Origin: Candidatus Doudnabacteria bacterium
GTDB lineage: Bacteria; Patescibacteriota; Doudnabacteria; UBA920; O2-02-FULL-48-8
Reading direction: 5' to 3'
Assembly (NCBI GenBank): GCA_016182875.1
Contig: JACPFQ010000004.1
Location: 99,203-163,202 of the forward strand
DNA length: 64,000 nt
Shown: positions 12,469 through 28,162 of the stretch, one piece after another
How positions within the stretch are numbered: position 1 is the first letter of the stretch
Layout: each line of letters begins with the position of its first letter
Made by a program: the position numbers and the translations under genes
Notes under the pieces: generated by a model
The model's database searches: none
What the model was told of the DNA's origin: nothing
Seen by the model: the letters and a program-made list of their open reading frames with translations, nothing else

Positions 12469-15030
12469 ATGCAATACTTTCACTCCAACTGGAACAAGCA
12501 TTACCGGAAAAATCGGGTTGAAAAAATCCTCTGGCAAGTTTTGGGGTTGCCTGTCTTTTTCCTGAAACAAATTAGGTCAGAAAAAAAACTGCGCCGAAAA
12601 CTCTTGCGCATTGCGATCTACGCAGCCTCGCTTTTTCTTATTGCCGGCAGCCTGACTTTTGCCGCGGTTTCACTTTCGCTGCCTGATCCAAACAAAATCA
12701 ACGCCCGGATCGTGCCGGAGTCGACAAAAATCTATGCGCGCGACGGGACAACCTTGCTTTATGAAATCCACGGCGAAGCCAAACGAACTCTGGTCAATCT
12801 TTCCGACATTCCTGACTATGCCAAACAGGCGACCATTGCCATCGAGGATAAAAATTTCTATCGCAACAAAGGCGTGGACTGGAAAGGTATACTTAGGGCG
12901 GCTATCCGAAACGTAAGTTCCGGCAACCTCACGGGGCAGGGAGGGTCCACGATTACCCAGCAGTTTGTGCGAAACGCCATTTTGACCCGCGAGAAAACAT
13001 TCACGCGCAAAATCAAAGAGGCGGTGCTGGCGATCGAAATGGAGCAAAGGTTCACCAAAGACGAAATTCTCAAGCTCTACCTCAATGAAATCCCATACGG
13101 CCAAAACGCCTACGGCATTGAGGCGGCGGCACAAACCTATTTTGCCAAACACGCCAAAGATTTGACCCTGGCTGAGGCGGCCTACCTCGCCGCCTTGCCT
13201 CAGGCTCCAACCTATTATTCTCCCAATGGCGCCAACCGCGACAAGCTTGATAACCGGAAAAACCTGGTGCTTAAAGCCATGAAAGAGGAGGGTTACATTA
13301 CAGACCAGCAGTACTTGCAGGCTTCGCAAGAAAAAGTCGTCTTTGGCAAAATCAAGGACGCCATCCTCGCCCCGCACTTTGTGCTTTATGTCCAAAGCCT
13401 GCTGGCGGAAAGATATGGCGAAAAAACTTTGGAGGAAGGCGGACTTAAGGTCATCACCACGCTTGATTACAACCTGCAGCAAATCGCCGAAAAAGCTGTC
13501 AGAGAGGGAGTGCAAAAAGATGAAAAATATAATAAGGCCAGCAATGCCGCCCTGGCAGCAATTGACCCTAAAACCGGGCAGATTCTGGCAATGGTCGGGT
13601 CTCGTGATTTTTTTGACGAAGAGCATGACGGGCAGGTCAACGTCGCTCTCCGAGAACGTCAGCCAGGCTCCTCAATCAAACCTTATATTTATGCCGCGGC
13701 GTTCAAAAAAGGCATGGGTCCGGCGACCATGTTAATCGACGTCAAAACCGTTTTTGGAACGTTCGGCGACAAAGAATACGCGCCGTCAAATTACGACGGC
13801 AGCAGCCACGGAATTGTTTCGATGCGCAAGGCTCTGGCCGGATCTTTGAATATCCCGGCAGTCAAAACATTGGCTCTAACCGGAGTGCAGGATGCCATTG
13901 ATACGGCCAAAGATTTAGGGATCACTTCTGACATCAACGCTGACCGCTGCGGGCTGGCCCTGGTCTTAGGCGGATGTGAAATCAAGCTCCTTGACCATGT
14001 AGCAAGCATGGGCGTATTTGCTGCCAGCGGCATTAAGCATGAAAAAACACCGATTCTAAAAATCACAGACAGCAGGGGGCGGTTGCTTGAAGAATATCAG
14101 GAAGGCCGCGGAGAAGAGATGATTGATCCGCAAATCGCCTACCAATTAACCAACATCATGTCGGATAACGACGCCCGGGCCTTTATCTTCGGCGCCAAAT
14201 CTCCGTTGGTTCTTCCGGATAGAGTCGTGGCGGCCAAAACCGGGACAACTCAGCAGTGGAAAGACGGATGGACCGTCGGATTTACCCCGTCACTGGCGGC
14301 GGGAGTATGGCGGGGGAATAATGATTCAACTCCCATGAGGGCCGGAGCCGACGGCGTGATTGTCGCGGCCCCGATTTGGAATCAATTCATGCGGGAGGCA
14401 CTAAAGGGCACTCCACCCGAACAGTTCCTCGAACCAGAAGGAATCCAGCATATTTTGGTAGACAGCATTTCGGGCAAACTTCCCACGGAATATACGCCTT
14501 CAACCAAAACTGAAATTTTTACTAGTTTCAGCCTGCCTAAAGACTATGACGATGTGCACACCGCCGTTAAGGTCAACCGCTTAAACGGCAAGCGCACTAA
14601 TGAACTAACACCTCCCGAGCTGGTTGAGACCCGAGTTTATACCACAATCCACTCGGAATTGCCCCACAATCCCAACTGGGAAGAGCCGGTCAGGGCCTGG
14701 GCCGCAAACGCGGGTTATGGCAACCCTCCCAGCGAGTATGACGACGGTTCGGTCAACCCCAATTTGGGCTACATCCGGTTTACCAGCCCAGTCAATGACC
14801 AAACCATAATCCAGCTTCCGTTTATAGTCGAAGTCGATGTCGGCAGTCTGCCGGTAATCTTAATGGATTTGAGCTTGGAAGGGGAATACGTTGGAACAAA
14901 AACCTCGATCCCCTATGCGTTTCAAATTAACACCGCCCGAAAAGGCTGGCAGACGCTGACTGCCACAGCGCAACTTACAAACGGCGACTTGATACAAAAC
15001 AGCATTCGAATTAACGTCGTATTCGAATGA
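12469..15030 (+). CDS. Penicillin-binding protein 1A family (GT51 transglycosylase + transpeptidase)
   Basis: GT51 motifs (IAIEDKNFYRNKGVD, GGSTITQQ) and transpeptidase SxxK/SxN/KTGT motifs (SSIK, KTGTT). Confidence 0.9.
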   Translation: MQYFHSNWNKHYRKNRVEKILWQVLGLPVFFLKQIRSEKKLRRKLLRIAIYAASLFLIAGSLTFAAVSLSLPDPNKINARIVPESTKIYARDGTTLLYEIHGEAKRTLVNLSDIPDYAKQATIAIEDKNFYRNKGVDWKGILRAAIRNVSSGNLTGQGGSTITQQFVRNAILTREKTFTRKIKEAVLAIEMEQRFTKDEILKLYLNEIPYGQNAYGIEAAAQTYFAKHAKDLTLAEAAYLAALPQAPTYYSPNGANRDKLDNRKNLVLKAMKEEGYITDQQYLQASQEKVVFGKIKDAILAPHFVLYVQSLLAERYGEKTLEEGGLKVITTLDYNLQQIAEKAVREGVQKDEKYNKASNAALAAIDPKTGQILAMVGSRDFFDEEHDGQVNVALRERQPGSSIKPYIYAAAFKKGMGPATMLIDVKTVFGTFGDKEYAPSNYDGSSHGIVSMRKALAGSLNIPAVKTLALTGVQDAIDTAKDLGITSDINADRCGLALVLGGCEIKLLDHVASMGVFAASGIKHEKTPILKITDSRGRLLEEYQEGRGEEMIDPQIAYQLTNIMSDNDARAFIFGAKSPLVLPDRVVAAKTGTTQQWKDGWTVGFTPSLAAGVWRGNNDSTPMRAGADGVIVAAPIWNQFMREALKGTPPEQFLEPEGIQHILVDSISGKLPTEYTPSTKTEIFTSFSLPKDYDDVHTAVKVNRLNGKRTNELTPPELVETRVYTTIHSELPHNPNWEEPVRAWAANAGYGNPPSEYDDGSVNPNLGYIRFTSPVNDQTIIQLPFIVEVDVGSLPVILMDLSLEGEYVGTKTSIPYAFQINTARKGWQTLTATAQLTNGDLIQNSIRINVVFE

Positions 15031-16166
15031 CAATTCTCTTAGGGTTAATCTTGGCCCTAGTCCCAAGTTACCTCTTGCGTTTTACAATCTTTGGCATCCC
15101 GACCACGGTTTTGGAAATTCTGCTCGTGGTGTTTTTGCTGTTGACGGTTGCAAGATTTAGGATTAAGGATTTAGGTAAACTGAAAAATCTTGGCAAACTC
15201 AACTATGCCATTGCCCTATTTGTTCTTGCTGGAATTGCTGCTGTCATCATCTCTCCGGAACCGCTCAAAGCCTTAGGCCAGCTCAAAGCCTTCATCATTG
15301 AGCCAGTGTTATTTTTTTACGCAATTCTGTTAACAGTCAAAGATCAACAGTCAATGGTCAGGGTTCTGCGCTGGCTGTTTGCAGGAGCAATAATCATAAG
15401 CATGTTTGGGCTTATTCAGTACCTTACCAACCTTGGTCTGCCGCTGCGCTTTTGGGGATCGGGCCTTGAGCCTAAGCGCCTTACTTCCTTTTTTGAATAT
15501 CCAAACGCTCTCGCCTTGTACTTAGGCCCGCTAGTTGTTTTCTTCTTCGCTTTGTTTCTCAAAAAATTCTACTTCATAAACAGGCACTCATTATTAGCAG
15601 GACTTGTAATTATAACAGCGGCGCTGATTTTGACTTATTCCCGCGGCGCTTGGATTGCGGTAATTTTAGCTGTCCTCATATTGTTGTTCAAAACCTACTC
15701 GGCAAAAAAAGCTGTATCGCTGGCAATCGTAATTGTCTTGGCTGGCCTGCTTTTAAGCCCCATAAGAAGCCGCTTAACCTTAACCGACGCCTCATCTCTG
15801 GCTCACAGGGATTTATGGCAGATTTCCATGGATAAAATTGTTCAAAGTCCGATTTTTGGCAATGGCTTATACGGCTTCCGTGATACCTTGCAAAAAGCCC
15901 ATTTTCAGGGTGAAATCCTAAATTACCCCCATAATATAATCTTAAATTTCTGGCTGGAAACGGGGTTATTGGGACTCTTGTCATTTTTTGCCGTTATCTA
16001 TTTAAGCCTTGCTCAATACAAAAAAAGCCCGGCGGCTTTGAAGCTCGGCGCGGCCTTGGCGCTAGTGGCAATTTTACTCCATGGACTAGTCGACGTGCCT
16101 TACTTTAAAAATGATCTGGCGGTGCTGTTTTGGTTTATCTTAAGCCTATTCTTTATTGAAAATTAA
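15027..16166 (+). CDS. O-antigen ligase (Wzy_C)-family polytopic membrane protein
   Basis: Multi-TM protein with the YSRGAWIA segment typical of the O-antigen ligase domain. Confidence 0.7.
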   Translation: MTILLGLILALVPSYLLRFTIFGIPTTVLEILLVVFLLLTVARFRIKDLGKLKNLGKLNYAIALFVLAGIAAVIISPEPLKALGQLKAFIIEPVLFFYAILLTVKDQQSMVRVLRWLFAGAIIISMFGLIQYLTNLGLPLRFWGSGLEPKRLTSFFEYPNALALYLGPLVVFFFALFLKKFYFINRHSLLAGLVIITAALILTYSRGAWIAVILAVLILLFKTYSAKKAVSLAIVIVLAGLLLSPIRSRLTLTDASSLAHRDLWQISMDKIVQSPIFGNGLYGFRDTLQKAHFQGEILNYPHNIILNFWLETGLLGLLSFFAVIYLSLAQYKKSPAALKLGAALALVAILLHGLVDVPYFKNDLAVLFWFILSLFFIEN

Positions 16167-22013: not shown

Positions 22014-22046
22014 TACCCCCTCTAACTCCCCCTTCCAGGGGGAGAA
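22013..22046 (+). terminator. recF terminator hairpin that is also a minimal copy of the palindromic-element terminal repeats (TAACTCCCCC-ttcca-GGGGGAGaaTTA)
   Basis: CCCCC-TTCCA-GGGGG stem-loop followed by aattatttttct; its ends match those of the elements inside uvrB and valS. Confidence 0.55.
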
Positions 22047-22141
22047 TTATTTTTCTAAAAATTAGACAAATCAAAAGAGCGAGGCCGACCCATACGGGGT
22101 CAAACCTCGCCCTCTCGTCCGGTCGAATGACCGGAACGTGT

Positions 22142-23884
22142 CTATCTGTCTTCCTCCTCCCTTTCGTTATCGAGCTCCATGTGAAGGCCTTGTGAGACCC
22201 TCAACATGAATTCGCGGCGCTCGTTCGGCTTGCCGCCGAAGAACTTAAACCTTCTCTCGACCTTCTTGGGTTCGTGGGCCACCACGTGATCCGCGGTCAT
22301 CATATTGATGACCTTCTGTTCCGCCTCAAGCCCGTCGACATGCTGAGCGAGCGCGGTTACCGCACTGCGGGCTTCACCCGTGACCCGCTCGACGGCAGCG
22401 ATGCGGTCCATCATGGACTGCCGCAGCTCGGCACCGTACTTGGTAACGACTTCCGTGGCCTGCGCCCGCGCCGCTGTAGTGACCCGCGCCTCGAGCCCGT
22501 CGAGCCCACTGTACTGGATCCTCAGGGCAGCGAGCTGCTGGCCCTGCGCCTGAACTTGCCGACGGAGCGCGGTGATGTCAGCGCTTGGCTGCGGCTGGGT
22601 GACCTGCTTCTGCACCGCCTCGATGCGCTGCTGCAGTCGGTAACCCATGGCGTTGGTCTGGTTATCCATGACTGTCACGTATTTGTCGGAGACGATTGTT
22701 CGGCCGTCCTGGCAGGTGACACCGACCTTGGTAGCTACCTTCCGAGCGTTGACCGGGTCGATGTTGACCGTGCCCACCACTTGCGTGGGTGAAGCGCTCG
22801 TCACGGTCATGCTGACACCGCGCGTGATATTCACCGCCGTCGGGTTTCCGGTGCAGAGGTTGCTGCCCGACAGGGTCAGCATCTGCGGTACCGGGTGGTC
22901 CACGACGATGGTGTCCGGTGATATCGAGGTGATCTGTCCGGCGGCCTGTGCGAACGCTGCGTTCGCGTAGCCGCCAAACAGCAGCGCCAGGATGATCACG
23001 GGAACCACAGGAGCCGGAGCCGCGGGAACGGCGGGCTGAGCCGAGACTTCCGCCGAGTTCGGTCCCTCGCCAGACCCGTAGTACGCGCTCACGACGTAGA
23101 AGTATTGGGTGCCGTTCGTGAGCCCCGCTGCGTCGGTGTAGGTCGTCGCATTGGCCGTGCCGACGATTGTGTACGGGCCGCCGGCAGTCGTGGCGCGTTT
23201 GACCGTGTAGAACACAGCGCCTGTGATTGCCGCCCAGTTGAGGACGACCTGAGCGTTCCCTGGCGTTGCCGCAAGCCCTGTGGGAGCAGCAGGTCTGTGT
23301 GCTTCCTGAGCGCGCCGACGGACTTCGGCGTCGCGGTCCTCCGGTTGTGCAGGACCGCGCCGCCGTAAGAACCAGACGGCAATGATGAGCACGAGCAGTC
23401 CCACACCAGCCCAGACGAACGGGGCCAAGTTGATGGCCGCTGGCGGACAGCCGGTGGTCAGAACGGGCGTTCCCTGCGGGGTGTCCTTGCACTGGTCGAC
23501 GTTGTCCGCGACCTTGTCGCCGTCCGAGTCAGTGGCGGCCGGCGGCGGTTCCTGCGCCTTGTCTGCCGCCTGCTGCTGTTCTTGCGAACAGCCGTTGCGG
23601 AAGATGGGCACGCCTTGCGGGGTGTTGGCGCACTGGTCGTCGCTGTTCGGGATGCCGTCGCGGTCTGCATCCGCCACCGGGGTTGCCGGTTGCGGAGTTG
23701 GCGTTGGCGCGGGAGCCGCGGGCTGGCCCTGAGTGGCCGGTGGTGCCTGCGGCGCGGGCGCGGGTTGCGGAGTCGGCGGTTGCGCAGTCGCAGCCTCGGG
23801 CTCCTGTGGCACGACCGGAATCTGCGCGAACGCGCTGGCGCTGAGCGCCAGCATTGCGAGCACGAAAACGAACATTCTTATCAT
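22142..23884 (-). CDS. High-GC secreted/membrane surface protein. Order: signal peptide, Pro-rich linker, two TSP3-like Ca-binding repeats, TM helix, FN3-like domain, second signal-peptide-like segment, Cys-containing beta domain, long coiled coil
   Basis: I prefer ATG at 23884 (MIRMFVFVLAMLALSASAFAQ) with SD AGGAGGG 3 nt upstream over the track start at 24106. Repeats DADRDGIPNSDDQC and DSDGDKVADNVDQC. FN3-like segment NAQVVLNWAAITGAVFYTVKR...GTQYFYVVSAYY. Confidence 0.55.
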   Translation of the reverse strand: MIRMFVFVLAMLALSASAFAQIPVVPQEPEAATAQPPTPQPAPAPQAPPATQGQPAAPAPTPTPQPATPVADADRDGIPNSDDQCANTPQGVPIFRNGCSQEQQQAADKAQEPPPAATDSDGDKVADNVDQCKDTPQGTPVLTTGCPPAAINLAPFVWAGVGLLVLIIAVWFLRRRGPAQPEDRDAEVRRRAQEAHRPAAPTGLAATPGNAQVVLNWAAITGAVFYTVKRATTAGGPYTIVGTANATTYTDAAGLTNGTQYFYVVSAYYGSGEGPNSAEVSAQPAVPAAPAPVVPVIILALLFGGYANAAFAQAAGQITSISPDTIVVDHPVPQMLTLSGSNLCTGNPTAVNITRGVSMTVTSASPTQVVGTVNIDPVNARKVATKVGVTCQDGRTIVSDKYVTVMDNQTNAMGYRLQQRIEAVQKQVTQPQPSADITALRRQVQAQGQQLAALRIQYSGLDGLEARVTTAARAQATEVVTKYGAELRQSMMDRIAAVERVTGEARSAVTALAQHVDGLEAEQKVINMMTADHVVAHEPKKVERRFKFFGGKPNERREFMLRVSQGLHMELDNEREEEDR

Positions 23885-24133
23885 CACACCCTCCTGTGAG
23901 ATGTGAAAGTTGGCCTCGCGGCCAGTTGAAACGAAACGCTCTGACGGCGTTTGGCCGCGAGCCAGTGCGTGAACTCTAGTAGCACTGCTTTTATGTCTGA
24001 AATTTATCCTGATGTAAATCAGGATCAGGCACAAAAGTAATCCTACTAAAATGGGGAGGAGCGAGGCAGTCTTGGTAGACCAGCCTCGCCCCACTCCTTC
24101 TTGCATCTCAGCGCTTGCGCGCTGAGTTTCCTC

Positions 24134-25960
24134 CTATCTGTTGTCTTCCTCCGGTCCGCCGTTGGGTGGCGCACCGTTCCGGGTCTCGCACGGGGTGGCC
24201 AGACCGAGCGCCTCGGCGACTGCTTGCGACGCCGTCTTGCGCTGGTTGGGCTGTCCGCGTCTGAGGAACCTGCCGCCAACGCGGTCAGGCTCGTCGTACA
24301 CGACATGCTGCATCGCAATGCAGGTGCCGGTCTCGACGTTGCCCATCCTGCCTTGCAGGTTGTTGACGTACCCGGCCTGGGTTGTCAGGGTCTTCGCGAG
24401 CTCCCCGGCGTAGCTAAGCGTCTGGTCAGCAACGCTGCGCGTCGCCTTGCCTGCCTCTTCGGCTGCGGCAATGCGCGACACCATGCGCTCCTCGAGGGTC
24501 TGGAGGTCGCTGAGGACATCCGCACGCCGCGCGAAGGGAGCCCATGATGCCTGGAGAAGCTCGCCAGCTTTCGCGTGCGTCGGCTGGGCGGAGTAGTCCA
24601 GGTAGCGCTTGTTCCCCTCTTCCCGCCCGTAGACCTGCTGGAACTTCTCCTGCAGGTAGTGTGAGAAACGCGGGTCGCGTCCGAACCGCTCGGCCGTGAT
24701 GTCGAGCACGGTCGCCGATTCCTGGCTGATGATGCGGACGACCGAGTTGCCCGACGCGATGTCGCCTGCGTCGGTGTTCACCACGAACGCCGTGGTCCCC
24801 GGCATGGCAGTCGCGTCTGCCTGGAGCTTGCTGATGATGGTGTTGCCCTTCATCACAATCTCCGTAGTGGTGGCCACACCGGTGCCGGCGTTGATGCCCG
24901 TGACCTTGCCGAGCTTGGCGTTGCGCGGGCAGGCCATGGTGATGGTCACGTCCGCGGCGTTGCCGCCCTGCACCAGGTATCCGTTCTGCACACTGACAGA
25001 ACGGACGGTGCACGTCGGAACTGCAGGGGCCGCGGGAGCGGCGGGCTGACCCTGAGCAGGCACCTGTGCGGCTGCCGGCTGCGGCGCTGCCGGCGGGGCC
25101 GGGGCAGCCGCACCGGGAGCGGCCGGCGCCGTGGTGACGGGTGGGGTCGGCTGCTGGGCGAGGGCGCTGTTGGCGCCGAGCCCGAGCAGGATGGCGATGA
25201 CGATGCTTCTCATGACAGTTCCTCCGAGTTTCCGGTTGATGTTGATGCCGAACCCGATGACGAGTCCGACGAGAATCACGAACCCGACGGCCCCGCCGAT
25301 GACGATGTACCGCAGCTTCTGATCGGTCCGCCGCGTGTCCTGGCGGGCGAGTAGCGCGTTGTTGGACGCCTTGATCGAGTACTGCCGGTCCATCCACGAG
25401 TTGTCCGCCGACGAGGCGATTGCCTTCTCGATTCGTCCGATGAGCGAGGCTTCGACGTCGTTCAGGCGGTGCTCGACGTCAGTAGGCGACGCGTTGTACG
25501 GCGCGACCTTGGCGATGTAGGTTCGGGTCGCTTCGAGAGGCGGTTGCGACGAGTCGGTGACCTTGACCGTGACCGTGTAGTCATCGCCTGGGATTTCTTC
25601 GCCACGCGATGAATACAGGTAGGCCTGACTCTTGCTCGGCAACCAGACATCGAGAATGTCTCCGTTCTTGATCTCGTCGACGATCTCCCACTTGTAGGGC
25701 TCGGTCCCGCCGCGCGCCGCCAGGTTGAACTCCTTGTAGCGGCCGGATTCGAACGCGATGGTCGTGGGTTCGACGATTGTCAACGAACCGGTTGCTGTCG
25801 CGGGCGGCTGCTGGGTCGAACCCGTCGCGGGCGGCGCCTGCTGAGTCGAAGTACCGGGCTGGCGAATCGTCGCGGTCTGCGCGCCGAGCGGCACCAGGTT
25901 CAAGAGGAACCCGAGCAGCAAAATCGCTGCGCAGATGAGGTACTGAGTCAACTTCTTCAT
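24134..25960 (-). CDS. High-GC surface protein, paralogous architecture to 22142..23884. Order: signal peptide, Thr/Pro-rich linker, Ig-like domain, TM helix, second signal peptide (with internal RBS + ATG at 25213), Pro-rich linker, Cys-containing beta domain, coiled coil
   Basis: SD AAGGGAGAG before ATG at 25960. GGTEPYKWEIV...DDYTVTVKVTD resembles bacterial putative-Ig domains. Internal GGAGGA-6nt-ATG (M250, MRSIVIAILLGLGANSALAQQ) is in frame. Confidence 0.55.
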   Translation of the reverse strand: MKKLTQYLICAAILLLGFLLNLVPLGAQTATIRQPGTSTQQAPPATGSTQQPPATATGSLTIVEPTTIAFESGRYKEFNLAARGGTEPYKWEIVDEIKNGDILDVWLPSKSQAYLYSSRGEEIPGDDYTVTVKVTDSSQPPLEATRTYIAKVAPYNASPTDVEHRLNDVEASLIGRIEKAIASSADNSWMDRQYSIKASNNALLARQDTRRTDQKLRYIVIGGAVGFVILVGLVIGFGININRKLGGTVMRSIVIAILLGLGANSALAQQPTPPVTTAPAAPGAAAPAPPAAPQPAAAQVPAQGQPAAPAAPAVPTCTVRSVSVQNGYLVQGGNAADVTITMACPRNAKLGKVTGINAGTGVATTTEIVMKGNTIISKLQADATAMPGTTAFVVNTDAGDIASGNSVVRIISQESATVLDITAERFGRDPRFSHYLQEKFQQVYGREEGNKRYLDYSAQPTHAKAGELLQASWAPFARRADVLSDLQTLEERMVSRIAAAEEAGKATRSVADQTLSYAGELAKTLTTQAGYVNNLQGRMGNVETGTCIAMQHVVYDEPDRVGGRFLRRGQPNQRKTASQAVAEALGLATPCETRNGAPPNGGPEEDNR

Positions 25961-25989
25961 GACTTGCTCTCCCTTTTGCTAACGAGCGG

Positions 25990-26226
25990 TTATGGTTCAA
26001 CGACAGTCACGTTGACTGCCATCAGTACTGCGTCGAGGTCGAACGTGGCCTGCTTGCCGCGGATTCGTCCGCGCGGCACGTGGTCGTCCCGAATCTCGAA
26101 CTTGTCTCCGACGTGGTCGGGGCCCGTGAGGACTCTCACCTTCCAGACCATCCTGCTAGGGTTGGTTGGGGAAGGATTGAAGCCCACGACATAGCCGGTA
26201 TACGCCGGTGACCCTCTGATCGTCAA
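25990..26226 (-). CDS. Small hypothetical protein (78 aa, TTG start) leading the high-GC minus-strand operon
   Basis: SD-like AGAGAGG upstream of TTG; same high G+C; 30 nt upstream of the next gene. Confidence 0.35.
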   Translation of the reverse strand: MTIRGSPAYTGYVVGFNPSPTNPSRMVWKVRVLTGPDHVGDKFEIRDDHVPRGRIRGKQATFDLDAVLMAVNVTVVEP

Positions 26227-26551
26227 AACGCACCTCTCTTTCTGAACAAATGCTGGTTGCGCCGCCGATACTTCCTAATTTTTAAGGCTTAAGAAACACG
26301 GGCGGCGCAACCAAAACTGAAACAAAATACACTATGGGATTTTAAAGAACGAACCGAATATGATAGCAAATTTTGGCACTTTTGTCAACCCCGACGCGCA
26401 AGCGGTCGGGGCTCCGACCGTAGCGTCGGAGTGCTCATGGTATTTTAGGCTAATTTTAGCCAAAAGCTGGCGCTAGGCTTGATTTTTTGCTTTAATACTA
26501 GTACAATTTAGCGTTCGTAAACCGCACTTTTAATTTTCCCAGGAGGGAGAA

Positions 26552-28138
26552 ATGATGTTTGCACAGATTTTTGTCGTCGTGGCGATTCTGGCTTCGGCCG
26601 GCGTCGCTTCCGCGCAAACGGTCTTTACTCCTTCCCTAAGAATTCCTGGGATTGGAGTAGAGCGAAAGAACATCAGCGGCGCGGTCCTGGACGATCGCAT
26701 CCGCAAGATAATTCTTTCACGGCAGTTCTGGCTCTTGCGGCAGGAATGCGCCAAGGATGCACCCAAGCGGCTGTTCGACAACTATTGGCGAATCATTGAG
26801 CCGGTGGCGGCGATTGAGCCCAGGCTTGATCCGTACATCATCGGAGCGCTGATTACTCTCGAAAGCTGCGTCGTTGAGAAAGCCGACAACGGGTTTGGTC
26901 CAGTTGGACTTTGCCAGATCGATATCGCGTCGGGCAAGGACCTCGGCATGAAGGTTCATGTTGAGCGGCGGTTCCGGTTGGTGCCGAGAAAAAATAGCCG
27001 CGGACAGATCCTCAAGGACAGGCGTGGAAGAGCGCTCGCTCGGCGCGTGTACTACTGGTATACCTATCCTGACGACGAGCGATGGGATCCAGCGAAGTGC
27101 ATCATGGGCATGCGCAATCGTCTGCTGCGCAGCTACAACGCCTACGGTTCGATGGATGCAACGCTCGCCGAGTACCACATGGGGCCAACGCGCATGAATC
27201 GTCTACTCTCGCTCTATACGGGTCAAAACGTGGTCAGGAATCCGACCAAAAAGGGCGAGGTCGCGGCCAAAGAAGTCATCGCGAAGCGGCAATTGCGCTA
27301 CGCGAAGATCTTCTTCGACAACACTCCGAGCTGGCGGCGCAGCGTCTGGCTTTACCTCAAGCGACTGCCTGACGACTCGGAAACGTACTACTTCAAAGAA
27401 GCCATGTGGGAAGGACTGCTTCGGTTTTACCATGACCCGCGGTACGGCGGCGGACCCGCGGCGTACGAACGACTGCAAGCCCGATACAGCGGGGCCTCTA
27501 GCCCAATGTGGTCGTTCTTCACGGAGGAGGAGCGTCAGCAGTATATGATCATGACCGTTGAGGCACTGGCCAAGGCGTACGATCCGCCCAGGCCTGGCGA
27601 GGGCGCGCGGCTCGTCCCGTTGCCTCAAGACCCGGCGTTCTTTGGGTTCAGGCCGAGACTTGAGGGGTCATCGCCGATTGGGGCGAAAGCGCTGAAACCG
27701 CAAGACAGACCATACTACATCGGGTCTGAAGCTTCAACGCTCGGCGCGCTCGTCTACATTTCTTACGAGCTTAGGCGGCTGACGGGGGCTGGGTTTCGGA
27801 TTTTGGAGACCAACTCGCTCGTCCGAGACAACGATTATCAGTTGCGTTTAAGAACTGATAACGTGAATGCGCGCACCAGCCTGCCCACGCACGTGATGGC
27901 CAAGGCCTTCGATCTTCCCTACAACTGGATGAGTCCGCAACTGCGGGAGAACTTGGAGTTCCTCCTGCAGGACCTGGCGTATGACGGCAAGCTGACATTC
28001 AGCCCCGAGTCAGGGAGCCAGCATACCGACCATGTCGTTCCTCATCCCGACGCGGAAGAGTTCTTCGACAAGGTCTACGCTGGAGCCGAACGTCAGCTGG
28101 CGGCGCGAAATGCCGCTCGTCGTGCAAACACCCAATAA
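26552..28138 (+). CDS. Secreted putative peptidoglycan hydrolase: signal peptide + lytic-transglycosylase (SLT)-like domain + C-terminal domain with an H-x6-D ... HxxH metal-site-like pattern (peptidase-like)
   Basis: Signal peptide MMFAQIFVVVAILASAGVASAQ. ITLESCVV...GFGPVGLCQI matches the SLT ES...GLMQ pattern. C-terminal SLPTHVMAKAFD and HTDHVVPH. SD AGGAGGGAG before the ATG. Confidence 0.5.
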   Translation: MMFAQIFVVVAILASAGVASAQTVFTPSLRIPGIGVERKNISGAVLDDRIRKIILSRQFWLLRQECAKDAPKRLFDNYWRIIEPVAAIEPRLDPYIIGALITLESCVVEKADNGFGPVGLCQIDIASGKDLGMKVHVERRFRLVPRKNSRGQILKDRRGRALARRVYYWYTYPDDERWDPAKCIMGMRNRLLRSYNAYGSMDATLAEYHMGPTRMNRLLSLYTGQNVVRNPTKKGEVAAKEVIAKRQLRYAKIFFDNTPSWRRSVWLYLKRLPDDSETYYFKEAMWEGLLRFYHDPRYGGGPAAYERLQARYSGASSPMWSFFTEEERQQYMIMTVEALAKAYDPPRPGEGARLVPLPQDPAFFGFRPRLEGSSPIGAKALKPQDRPYYIGSEASTLGALVYISYELRRLTGAGFRILETNSLVRDNDYQLRLRTDNVNARTSLPTHVMAKAFDLPYNWMSPQLRENLEFLLQDLAYDGKLTFSPESGSQHTDHVVPHPDAEEFFDKVYAGAERQLAARNAARRANTQ

Positions 28139-28162
28139 AAAAACCGCCCCGGAGGAGGCGGT
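28133..28162 (-). terminator. Rho-independent terminator for the minus-strand membrane-protein gene (hairpin CCGCC-ccggagga-GGCGG followed by a T-run on the minus strand)
   Basis: aaaaaaaaccgccccggaggaggcgg on the plus strand. Confidence 0.55.

Follow-up and report, generated by a model that had tools for sequence, protein, structure and literature searches.

A candidate internal start site at a second signal-peptide-like segment in a two-module surface-protein gene of Candidatus Doudnabacteria

Introduction

The question raised by this locus is whether one bacterial gene can deliver the same surface module in two ways, as the second half of an anchored protein and as a free secreted product whose translation starts inside the longer reading frame. 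The DNA analysed here (the window) is a stretch of 64,000 nucleotides from contig JACPFQ010000004.1 (assembly GCA_016182875.1, positions 99,203 to 163,202 of the forward strand), which belongs to a metagenome-assembled genome (MAG) of Candidatus Doudnabacteria, an uncultivated groundwater-type bacterium of the candidate phyla radiation (CPR). The gene in question is a 608-codon open reading frame (ORF) on the minus strand, in which a Shine-Dalgarno (SD) motif and an in-frame ATG (codon 250, M250) lie at the boundary between two modules, here called A and B. The original prediction, made from the sequence alone, had left two readings of this arrangement: either the locus makes an anchored full-length protein together with an independently initiated secreted C-terminal module, or two genes have recently fused into the ORF. 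From the comparison of the gene with its relatives, we consider it moderately probable that the single gene makes both an anchored two-part protein and, as a nested product, a free secreted second half.

Results

The two-module gene

The 608-aa ORF, with its signal peptide, Ig-like region and transmembrane (TM) helix, was present in the sequence as had been described, and its product was identical to the NCBI hypothetical protein HYV13_02285 of Candidatus Doudnabacteria. The reading frame was open throughout, with no stop codon between modules A and B. The Pro-rich linker, the two-Cys beta domain (C317 and C343) and the long helix or coiled coil, all claimed to follow the M250 segment, were likewise found. 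The beta strands of ectodomain A (aa 66-154) were taken from a low-confidence single-sequence AlphaFold2 (AF2) model; the single-sequence model of the whole 608-aa protein had a predicted local distance difference test (pLDDT) value of 46 and was kept out of the fold search. The parts of the gene are given below, with L and P numbers denoting related loci and proteins.

24134..25960, minus strand: two-module A-B ORF, 608 codons
25880..25960, minus strand: N-terminal signal peptide of module A, aa 1-27, ending VPLGA↓QT, from hydropathy (hydrophobic aa 7-25); kept in L001, P0124 and P0128
25310..25879, minus strand: ectodomain A, aa 28-217, with a Pro/Thr/Gln-rich linker, a beta-rich Ig-like region and a helical stalk
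25238..25309, minus strand: TM helix 1, aa 218-241, 24 residues, YIVIGGAVGFVILVGLVIGFGINI, from hydropathy
25214..25237, minus strand: short basic loop NRKLGGTV between TM helix 1 and M250, whose DNA holds the internal SD
25225..25220, minus strand: internal SD GGAGGA, 6 nt before the ATG
25157..25213, minus strand: putative internal start M250 (ATG 25213..25211) and signal-peptide-like segment, aa 250-268, MRSIVIAILLGLGANSALA↓QQ
25019..25156, minus strand: Pro/Ala-rich linker of module B, aa 269-314
24728..25018, minus strand: Ig-like beta-sandwich of module B, aa 315-411, with C317 and C343 (AF2 with the 11-sequence alignment, pLDDT 70-83)
24587..24724, minus strand: conserved helical region of module B with the family signature (alignment A6; pLDDT 83-95)
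24134..24577, minus strand: long helix or coiled coil (aa 462-556) and C-terminal tail with a GxFGGxP-type motif, to the stop codon

The internal SD site and the segment behind it

The GGAGGA-6nt-ATG arrangement was confirmed on the minus strand (...CGG AAA CTC GGA GGA ACT GTC ATG AGA AGC...). As a bare motif it was not enriched, GGAGG-N4-9-ATG being found 9 times in the window compared with 10 expected, and its significance must therefore come from context and comparison rather than from the motif count. Regarding the context, M250 was the sole one of the 9 sites that lay inside a long ORF and still had more than 75 open codons beyond it; the other 5 sites with more than 75 open codons were at or near ORF starts. 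GGA was a minority codon for Gly in the 608-aa gene (9/52), and the GG dipeptide at this site was the only one spelled GGA-GGA. That the motif might merely be a Gly-Gly pair kept for the sake of the protein was contradicted by the orthologs, which encode other residues at this position. The ATGA at M250 was also considered as the remnant of an ancestral overlapping stop in the +1 frame and was rejected, since it follows trivially from an Arg or Lys second codon; L001 shares this ATGA.

As had been proposed, M250 opens a signal-peptide-like segment just after the TM helix. The n-region is M-R-S, charged through R251, and the full-length context adds R243 and K244 of the NRKLGG loop. The hydrophobic core, IVIAILLGLGA, has 11 residues compared with 24 in TM helix 1, a length that suggests a signal peptide rather than a further TM helix. 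In the c-region, N-S-A-L-A↓Q-Q, small residues occupy positions -3 and -1, and sites of the same A↓Q type were found in the N-terminal signal peptides (LGA↓QT, AAA↓QQ) and in all family members. In P0002, a stand-alone module B protein, the polypeptide really does begin with the homologous segment; in the window protein this segment would be N-terminal only if translation starts at M250.

Conservation of the internal start among the closest relatives

The clade sharing the A-type ectodomain comprised the window gene, L009 (P0132/P0124), L010 (P0128) and L001. L009 is from another Doudnabacteria MAG with the same synteny, and L010 has the same operon layout and promoter. The orthologs in this clade were 27-37% identical to the window protein, and the flanking RuvB was 82-91% identical where a flank was available (L001, L005 and L009). 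As listed below, an SD core was located 6-8 nt before an ATG or GTG, directly ahead of the hydrophobic segment, in 4/4 orthologs.

Window junction: CTC GGA GGA ACT GTC ATG, encoding L-G-G-T-V-M
L009 junction: AAA AGG AGA ACG AAC GTG, encoding K-R-R-T-N-V
L010 junction: GAA GGA GAT GAC CCG ATG, encoding E-G-D-D-P-M
L001 junction: GAAGGAGATAGAG ATG, non-coding

The SD core was retained across the four orthologs though the encoded residues and the codon register vary (GG, RR, EG and non-coding). Judged by this alignment of a small sample of related members, the SD and the start are conserved beyond what the protein sequence requires. Away from the module boundaries, approximately 8 in-frame SD-plus-start combinations were counted in approximately 6000 codons (5-mer SD definition), and exactly at the junction there was one in each of the three fused orthologs. 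Two further sites of this kind were situated at the true start of P0132 and, in P0125, at the boundary between module A and orf78, a small ORF that leads the operon in the window.

The mRNA structure was then scanned by calculating the minimum free energy (MFE) of windows from -30 to +30 and ranking them, weakest first, along each gene. The MFE at the internal start was -10.0 in the window gene (gene mean -19.1, rank 11/585), -7.6 in L009 (gene mean -19.1, rank 12/581) and -9.7 in L010 (gene mean -16.4, rank 39/579), and in these three windows the GC content was down to 0.45-0.58 and the A content up to 0.30-0.38. No structure dip was observed in four members without an internal start, with ranks from 274/557 to 515/615. 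A loop can be basic without giving rise to an SD: the loops of the start-less members used CGN for 50/56 of their Arg codons and the L009 junction switches to AGR (4/4 vs 6/36 elsewhere, p = 0.002). The internal SD was also of the same type as the SDs at gene starts of the GC-rich island in which the gene lies, where 11/14 starts across five loci (the window, L001, L005, L009 and L010) had a canonical SD. The internal start is a feature of one clade and not of the whole family.

The A-B family and a split relative

A profile search with module B against 1.84 billion (1.84e9) representative proteins matched 11 proteins, namely the two window ORFs (the 608-aa ORF and its paralog), P0002 and eight more distant ones (P0124-P0131), for all eight of which the DNA was analysed as well. 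Ten of the 11 were single two-module ORFs of 463-638 aa with module B in the C-terminal half, and all members with a taxonomic label were from Candidatus Doudnabacteria (CPR) genomes. When the full protein or module A was the query, only the protein itself, P0002 and P0123 were matched, and pattern-based locus scans with module B returned nothing in GTDB genomes, JGI metagenomes or IMG/VR. The A-B protein had no Pfam match and no PHROG match, and with NCBIfam only a weak low-complexity match of 19 bits against a cut-off of 450. A 293-aa protein of L005 was tried as a relative of module B and was not counted as a member, its similarity being weak (hhalign E 0.007, probability 5%). From these searches, the A-B proteins are a small new family of predicted two-ectodomain surface proteins.

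The plan was compared in 12 sequences: the 10 single ORFs, the in-frame reading of L001 through the stop between its two genes, and the truncated second gene of L010. An N-terminal signal peptide, a variable ectodomain, a TM helix 1 of 18-24 aa, a loop of 6-114 aa and a hydrophobic segment 2 were found in 12/12. The loop was net positive in 11/12 sequences. Segment 2 had 14-20 aa and a small-x-small end in 12/12 (ASA↓Q, ANA↓Q, SFA↓Q, VYA↓Q and similar). Behind it, module B runs from the Ig-like domain through the signature (A)DPxxRHYLQxxFQxVYGxEEGNxxYxxYxxxP(S/T)H and a long helix or coiled coil to a basic tail with GxFGGxP; the full module was present in 11 of the sequences, and the truncated L010 gene breaks off soon past the Ig-like domain.

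P0002 was the only close homolog among 5.8 billion proteins. It is a stand-alone module B of 365 aa that starts MKKLMLIVVVLGILVGFGTVYA↓QQ and aligns with the window protein from residue 253 onward (52% identity, E 1e-60), its N-terminal signal peptide lying within the alignment. In its locus, L001, the gene upstream, of 303 aa, is a homolog of module A (E 4e-15), the similarity extending from the signal peptide as far as the TM helix. The two L001 genes share a frame and are separated by one TAA and 12 sense codons (...PRNRQ-stop-PSSQREEKKEIEMKKLML...). L001 is best read as a fused ORF split by a single nonsense codon. Most likely, too, the split was viable because the internal initiation region and the signal peptide would already have been in place.

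As a separate observation in P0125, the DNAs of two signal segments (L013, 1849-1889 vs 2617-2657) were 73% identical over 41 nt. One is the signal peptide after the orf78-like part, at the start of the A-like module, and the other is the later internal hydrophobic segment, which hints that the two signal peptides of these genes may be related by duplication.

Proposed mechanism

We propose that the N-terminal signal peptide would insert, ectodomain A would be exported and TM helix 1 would halt the transfer. The short basic loop should stay inside the cell according to the positive-inside rule, and M250-A268 would act as the return span of a TM hairpin that restarts the export of module B, leaving both ectodomains outside. 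Given the hydropathy, the segment length and the positive-inside rule, this hairpin is the most likely topology. Signal peptidase I could then cut at A-L-A↓Q and free B from the anchored A; cleavage at A268 is plausible because this end resembles the N-terminal signal-peptide sites of the same proteins. Ribosomes would also start at M250, and the product would then be module B by itself, a secretory precursor of the ordinary kind headed by its own signal peptide. We infer initiation at M250 from the sequence features described above. Both routes would yield the same mature B, so that anchored A and B would be made in equal amounts, plus an excess of B from the internal start. In the L001 relative, with an in-frame stop in the loop, B would be made from the internal start alone.

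The independently initiated module of the original prediction received indirect support, from the SD and start in 4/4 orthologs, the structure minimum, the island-type SD and P0002.

Weighing of the alternatives

Several observations weigh against a nested product. The core genes of the organism essentially lack SD sites (0/36 in the window and 1/25 in the relatives), and the internal SD is a putative one, likened by motif to those of the island gene starts. The internal start was absent from the paralog and from five distant members (P0125, P0127, P0129, P0131 and the L010 second gene); module B therefore does not need it, and the SD and start could be dispensable. Those that do carry them are only three fused orthologs and one split one, which share ancestry and are not independent observations, and the structure dip in L010 was weaker than in the other two. 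The topology was deduced from how hydrophobic and how long the segments are and from the positive-inside rule, and the hairpin would set a fibronectin type III (FN3) domain of the paralog in the cytoplasm, which is odd. Together with the lack of enrichment of the bare motif, the missing starts and the SD-less core genes could mean that the full-length hairpin protein is the only product, whether or not cleaved at A268, and that the SD and M250 are leftovers or by-products of a purine-rich loop. This single-product explanation is possible, yet we hold it to be unlikely. It has to account for an SD core kept in different codon contexts in four orthologs at 27-37% protein identity, with the start codon always 6-8 nt downstream, for a structure minimum seen only in members having the start, and for basic loops elsewhere that use CGN codons and show no SD. 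Moreover, the split L001 must use the junction SD and start to make B.

A recent fusion, the other reading in the original prediction, would mean that the stop of module A and a spacer were lost and that the start of gene B survives, as a fresh relic, in the SD, the ATG and the signal peptide. The separate A and B genes of L001, the latter led by an SD, and the intact SD and ATG of the window gene agree with it. However, 10/11 family proteins are single ORFs with the same hairpin junction, even members that only the profile detects; the orthologs L009 and L010 are fused too; and the sole split pair is in frame with a single TAA between the genes, the signature of a nonsense mutation. When the junction DNA of the window was aligned with that of L001, the loop was too diverged to show an exact fusion event. 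The homologs were thus not always single-module and the fused form prevailed, and we regard a recent fusion as very unlikely. Hardly credible is an artefact, in which two genes would have lost the stop between them through an error of sequencing, assembly or binning, or the island would be a chimeric insertion. The GC content of the island (62-68%, with flanks of approximately 46%) could raise such a suspicion, and a related metagenome contig, L008, is truly chimeric: at approximately 2778 it joins an unrelated gene to a 3' part of an SLT-like gene identical to that of L005, and it was rejected as an island locus. Nevertheless, three independent Logan assemblies from different runs and the NCBI MAG all had identical gene DNA between the same flanks, so an assembly error does not account for the missing stop, and a GC-rich island between recF and bPH/ruvB also occurs in L001, L005 and L009. 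The production of both an anchored A-B protein and a nested B accordingly remains our preferred reading.

The paralog

The neighbouring ORF had been described as a paralog with the same two-module logic and no internal ATG. This was borne out, with the TM helix, the RRRG segment, the FN3 and a second hydrophobic segment all in place, and no SD was found either.

22142..23884, minus strand: paralogous two-module ORF, 580 aa, with signal peptide, two TSP3 repeats, TM helix 1, RRRG loop, Ig-like domain, coiled coil and FGGKPN tail
23366..23419, minus strand: TM helix 1 of the paralog
23039..23287, minus strand: FN3 of the paralog, inserted in the RRRG loop, aa 200-282
22949..23008, minus strand: internal hydrophobic segment of the paralog, VVPVIILALLFGGYANAAFA↓QA

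The FN3 scored 22.7 bits with PF00041, below the cut-off of 25, and was 60-66% identical to FN3 modules of PF00041-bearing proteins. These modules belong to secreted enzymes, GH44 among them, from Acidobacteria, Planctomycetota and Verrucomicrobia, and a search with the whole paralog protein gave FN3 matches only. The L010 ortholog of the paralog has no FN3 and carries a 30-residue Lys-rich loop in its place. The FN3 was probably acquired horizontally as an insertion, judging by these similarities.

A 250-nt AT-richer spacer separates the paralog from the 608-aa ORF. Just past the stop codon of this ORF the spacer holds a small hairpin (24107..24126, minus strand) whose GC-rich stem pairs perfectly over 8 bp and is capped by a GCAA loop (CTCAGCGC gcaa GCGCTGAG); no T-run follows it.

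The fold of module B

The AF2 model of module B on the 11-sequence alignment had a mean pLDDT of 69.7. Residues 1-97 of the model (aa 315-411) formed an Ig-like sandwich, and residues 99-144 (aa 413-458) a confident helical region followed by the long helix. Foldseek against the PDB returned only Ig-like domains, from adhesins (InvE), the S-layer protein SbsC, filamin and IPT domains. That module B acts at the cell surface or in adhesion would fit this modelled fold but is a guess.

The GC-rich island and its operon

The gene is part of a GC-rich island of approximately 6 kb, at roughly 22.1-28.1 kb, which is flanked by dnaA-dnaN-recF on one side and by a bPH-domain gene and ruvB on the other. 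The L001 island is syntenic with that of the window and contains an SLT-like gene, the 303-aa gene and P0002. The features of the island beyond the two surface ORFs are as follows.

22100-28140 (window): GC-rich island; corresponding islands at L001 7000-11100, L005 6500-9500, L009 8001-9815 and L016 5000-10000
26360..26388, minus strand: promoter-like site TTGACA-17-TATCAT with a TG extension, 11/12 matches, upstream of orf78 and the two surface ORFs
26254..26313, minus strand: inverted repeat (hairpin) in the 5' leader of the operon, 25-nt arms, 80% complementary
25990..26226, minus strand: orf78, the small operon-leading ORF, 48% identical to L005 7601-7798 (E 1e-14) and also present in L010
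26552..28138, plus strand: divergent secreted protein of 528 aa with an SLT lytic-transglycosylase domain and a DUF5715-like C-terminal region
22026..22044, plus strand: terminator-like hairpin between recF and the end of the surface operon

The G+C content at third codon positions was 0.70-0.89 in the island vs approximately 0.34-0.65 in core genes. The island is next to recF in four Doudnabacteria-type loci, and its proteins were 27-52% identical between genomes whose RuvB was 82-91% identical. No integrase, tRNA or flanking repeats were found in the island. A phage or defence origin was considered and set aside: the PHROG matches were only weak and were explained by the FN3 and SLT domains (PADLOC was not searched). 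From the SD counts given above, the island appears to start translation differently from the host genome, and the sequences suggest that core genes have leaderless mRNAs. A TATAAT-like box was observed 7-12 nt before the ATG in many core genes.

A near-identical promoter sequence precedes the orthologous operon in L010, which also has an inverted repeat at the same relative position (by eye). The promoter and hairpin together (26254-26388) may constitute a regulatory leader; Rfam over the window returned only two tRNAs and no match to the leader. orf78 had no family match; P0125 contains it as an in-frame fusion with the module that follows, with an SD and an ATG at the boundary.

The SLT domain of the 528-aa protein scored 24.7 bits, above the cut-off, and the C-terminal region has conserved His and Asp residues (THxxAKAFD...HVVxHP). 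Judged by eye, these could form a metallopeptidase-type site, and the protein may be a bifunctional cell-wall hydrolase. Relatives occurred in the islands of L001, L005 and L010 and not in that of L009. Locus scans with this SLT-like neighbour as the query returned L005 (also returned as L006), L007, which matched the query as L005 did, and the chimeric L008, and a scan of viral contigs returned nothing.

In L005, a set resembling a diversity-generating retroelement (DGR) was noticed at 13158-15888, with an Avd-like four-helix protein, a reverse transcriptase (RT; RVT_1, E 3e-24) and a GC-rich 313-aa ORF. A link between the island and a DGR was considered and rejected, the L005 RT and Avd genes being approximately 5 kb from the island, and an Avd-like gene near P0125 having neither an RT nor a template/variable repeat.

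Discussion

Bacterial N-terminal proteoforms made by in-frame internal initiation, for example CheA-L/S and the short forms of SpaO/SsaQ, have been reviewed (PMC13515050), and internal starts have been mapped genome-wide by retapamulin Ribo-seq (bioRxiv 10.1101/520783). The candidate described here resembles them in having an SD and a start in frame inside a longer ORF with a shared stop, and in products expected to differ in localisation or stoichiometry. IF2 alpha/beta and ClpB are further proteoforms of this kind. Unlike these, the short form predicted from the present sequence would begin with a Sec-type signal peptide, and in the long form that same peptide would span the membrane; because of this the two products would differ in anchoring and not just in a missing domain. 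To our knowledge, no bacterial case has been described in which a signal peptide doubles as a TM span via an internal start.

Two-polypeptide phage endolysins, in the account of PMC9430671 on which we draw, are encoded by a single gene with an internal start and a shared stop, an arrangement that sets the subunit stoichiometry. As described there, the full-length product is accompanied by a C-terminal module made from an internal SD and start, as proposed here; in contrast, those proteins are cytoplasmic phage lysis enzymes that lack a membrane hairpin and whose internal start does not open a signal peptide. Searches of PHROG, viral contigs and IMG/VR gave no phage relatives of the A-B family.

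The layout of the long form is more like that of viral envelope polyproteins. In flavivirus C-prM-E and bunyavirus Gn-Gc, internal signal sequences are cut by the signal peptidase of the host. The order of an ectodomain, a TM span, a short cytosolic loop, a hydrophobic segment with a small-x-small end and a next ectodomain, seen in 12/12 family sequences, is the same, and one ORF would likewise deliver two extracytoplasmic proteins. The differences are that bacterial Sec and signal peptidase I would be used, with cleavage inferred, and that the candidate internal start has no counterpart in such viruses. Another comparison is with SlpA of Clostridioides difficile, a precursor split into two surface subunits by a dedicated cysteine protease. 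Here too one ORF would give two cell-surface polypeptides that may stay associated, and the Ig-like domain of module B weakly resembles SbsC and adhesin folds; however, there is no sequence relationship, and SlpA has neither an internal start nor a cleavage site at an internal signal peptide. As in Rosetta-stone fusion and fission, the modules occur as one ORF (window, L009 and L010) and as two genes (L001), with the difference that the direction here is most likely fission by a single nonsense codon. What is new is the combination of a putative nested product that starts with a signal peptide spanning the membrane in the long product and a relative split by a single stop; the device itself is known.

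A bolder scheme may be outlined, which we rate as rather doubtful when taken as a whole. The gene would be a polyprotein with a dial, in which signal peptidase I gives anchored A and released B at 1:1 and the internal start adds a tunable excess of B, which might for instance assemble into a coiled-coil fibre or lattice rooted in an A-B base on the surface of the episymbiotic CPR cell. The cassette of promoter, orf78, A-B genes and muralytic enzyme would be a fast-evolving, GC-rich, SD-using foreign module beside dnaA-dnaN-recF in an SD-less genome.

In-frame internal starts are increasingly recognised in bacteria, and long ORFs in GC-rich islands can conceal nested genes from annotation. If the preferred reading of an anchored A-B protein with a nested B is true, the gene would represent a simple route to anchored and free versions of a surface module from one gene. 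A single nonsense mutation could then yield two working genes, because the start signals pre-exist. The A-B proteins would also add a fast-evolving new surface-protein family in CPR bacteria, whose surface biology and host attachment are barely known.

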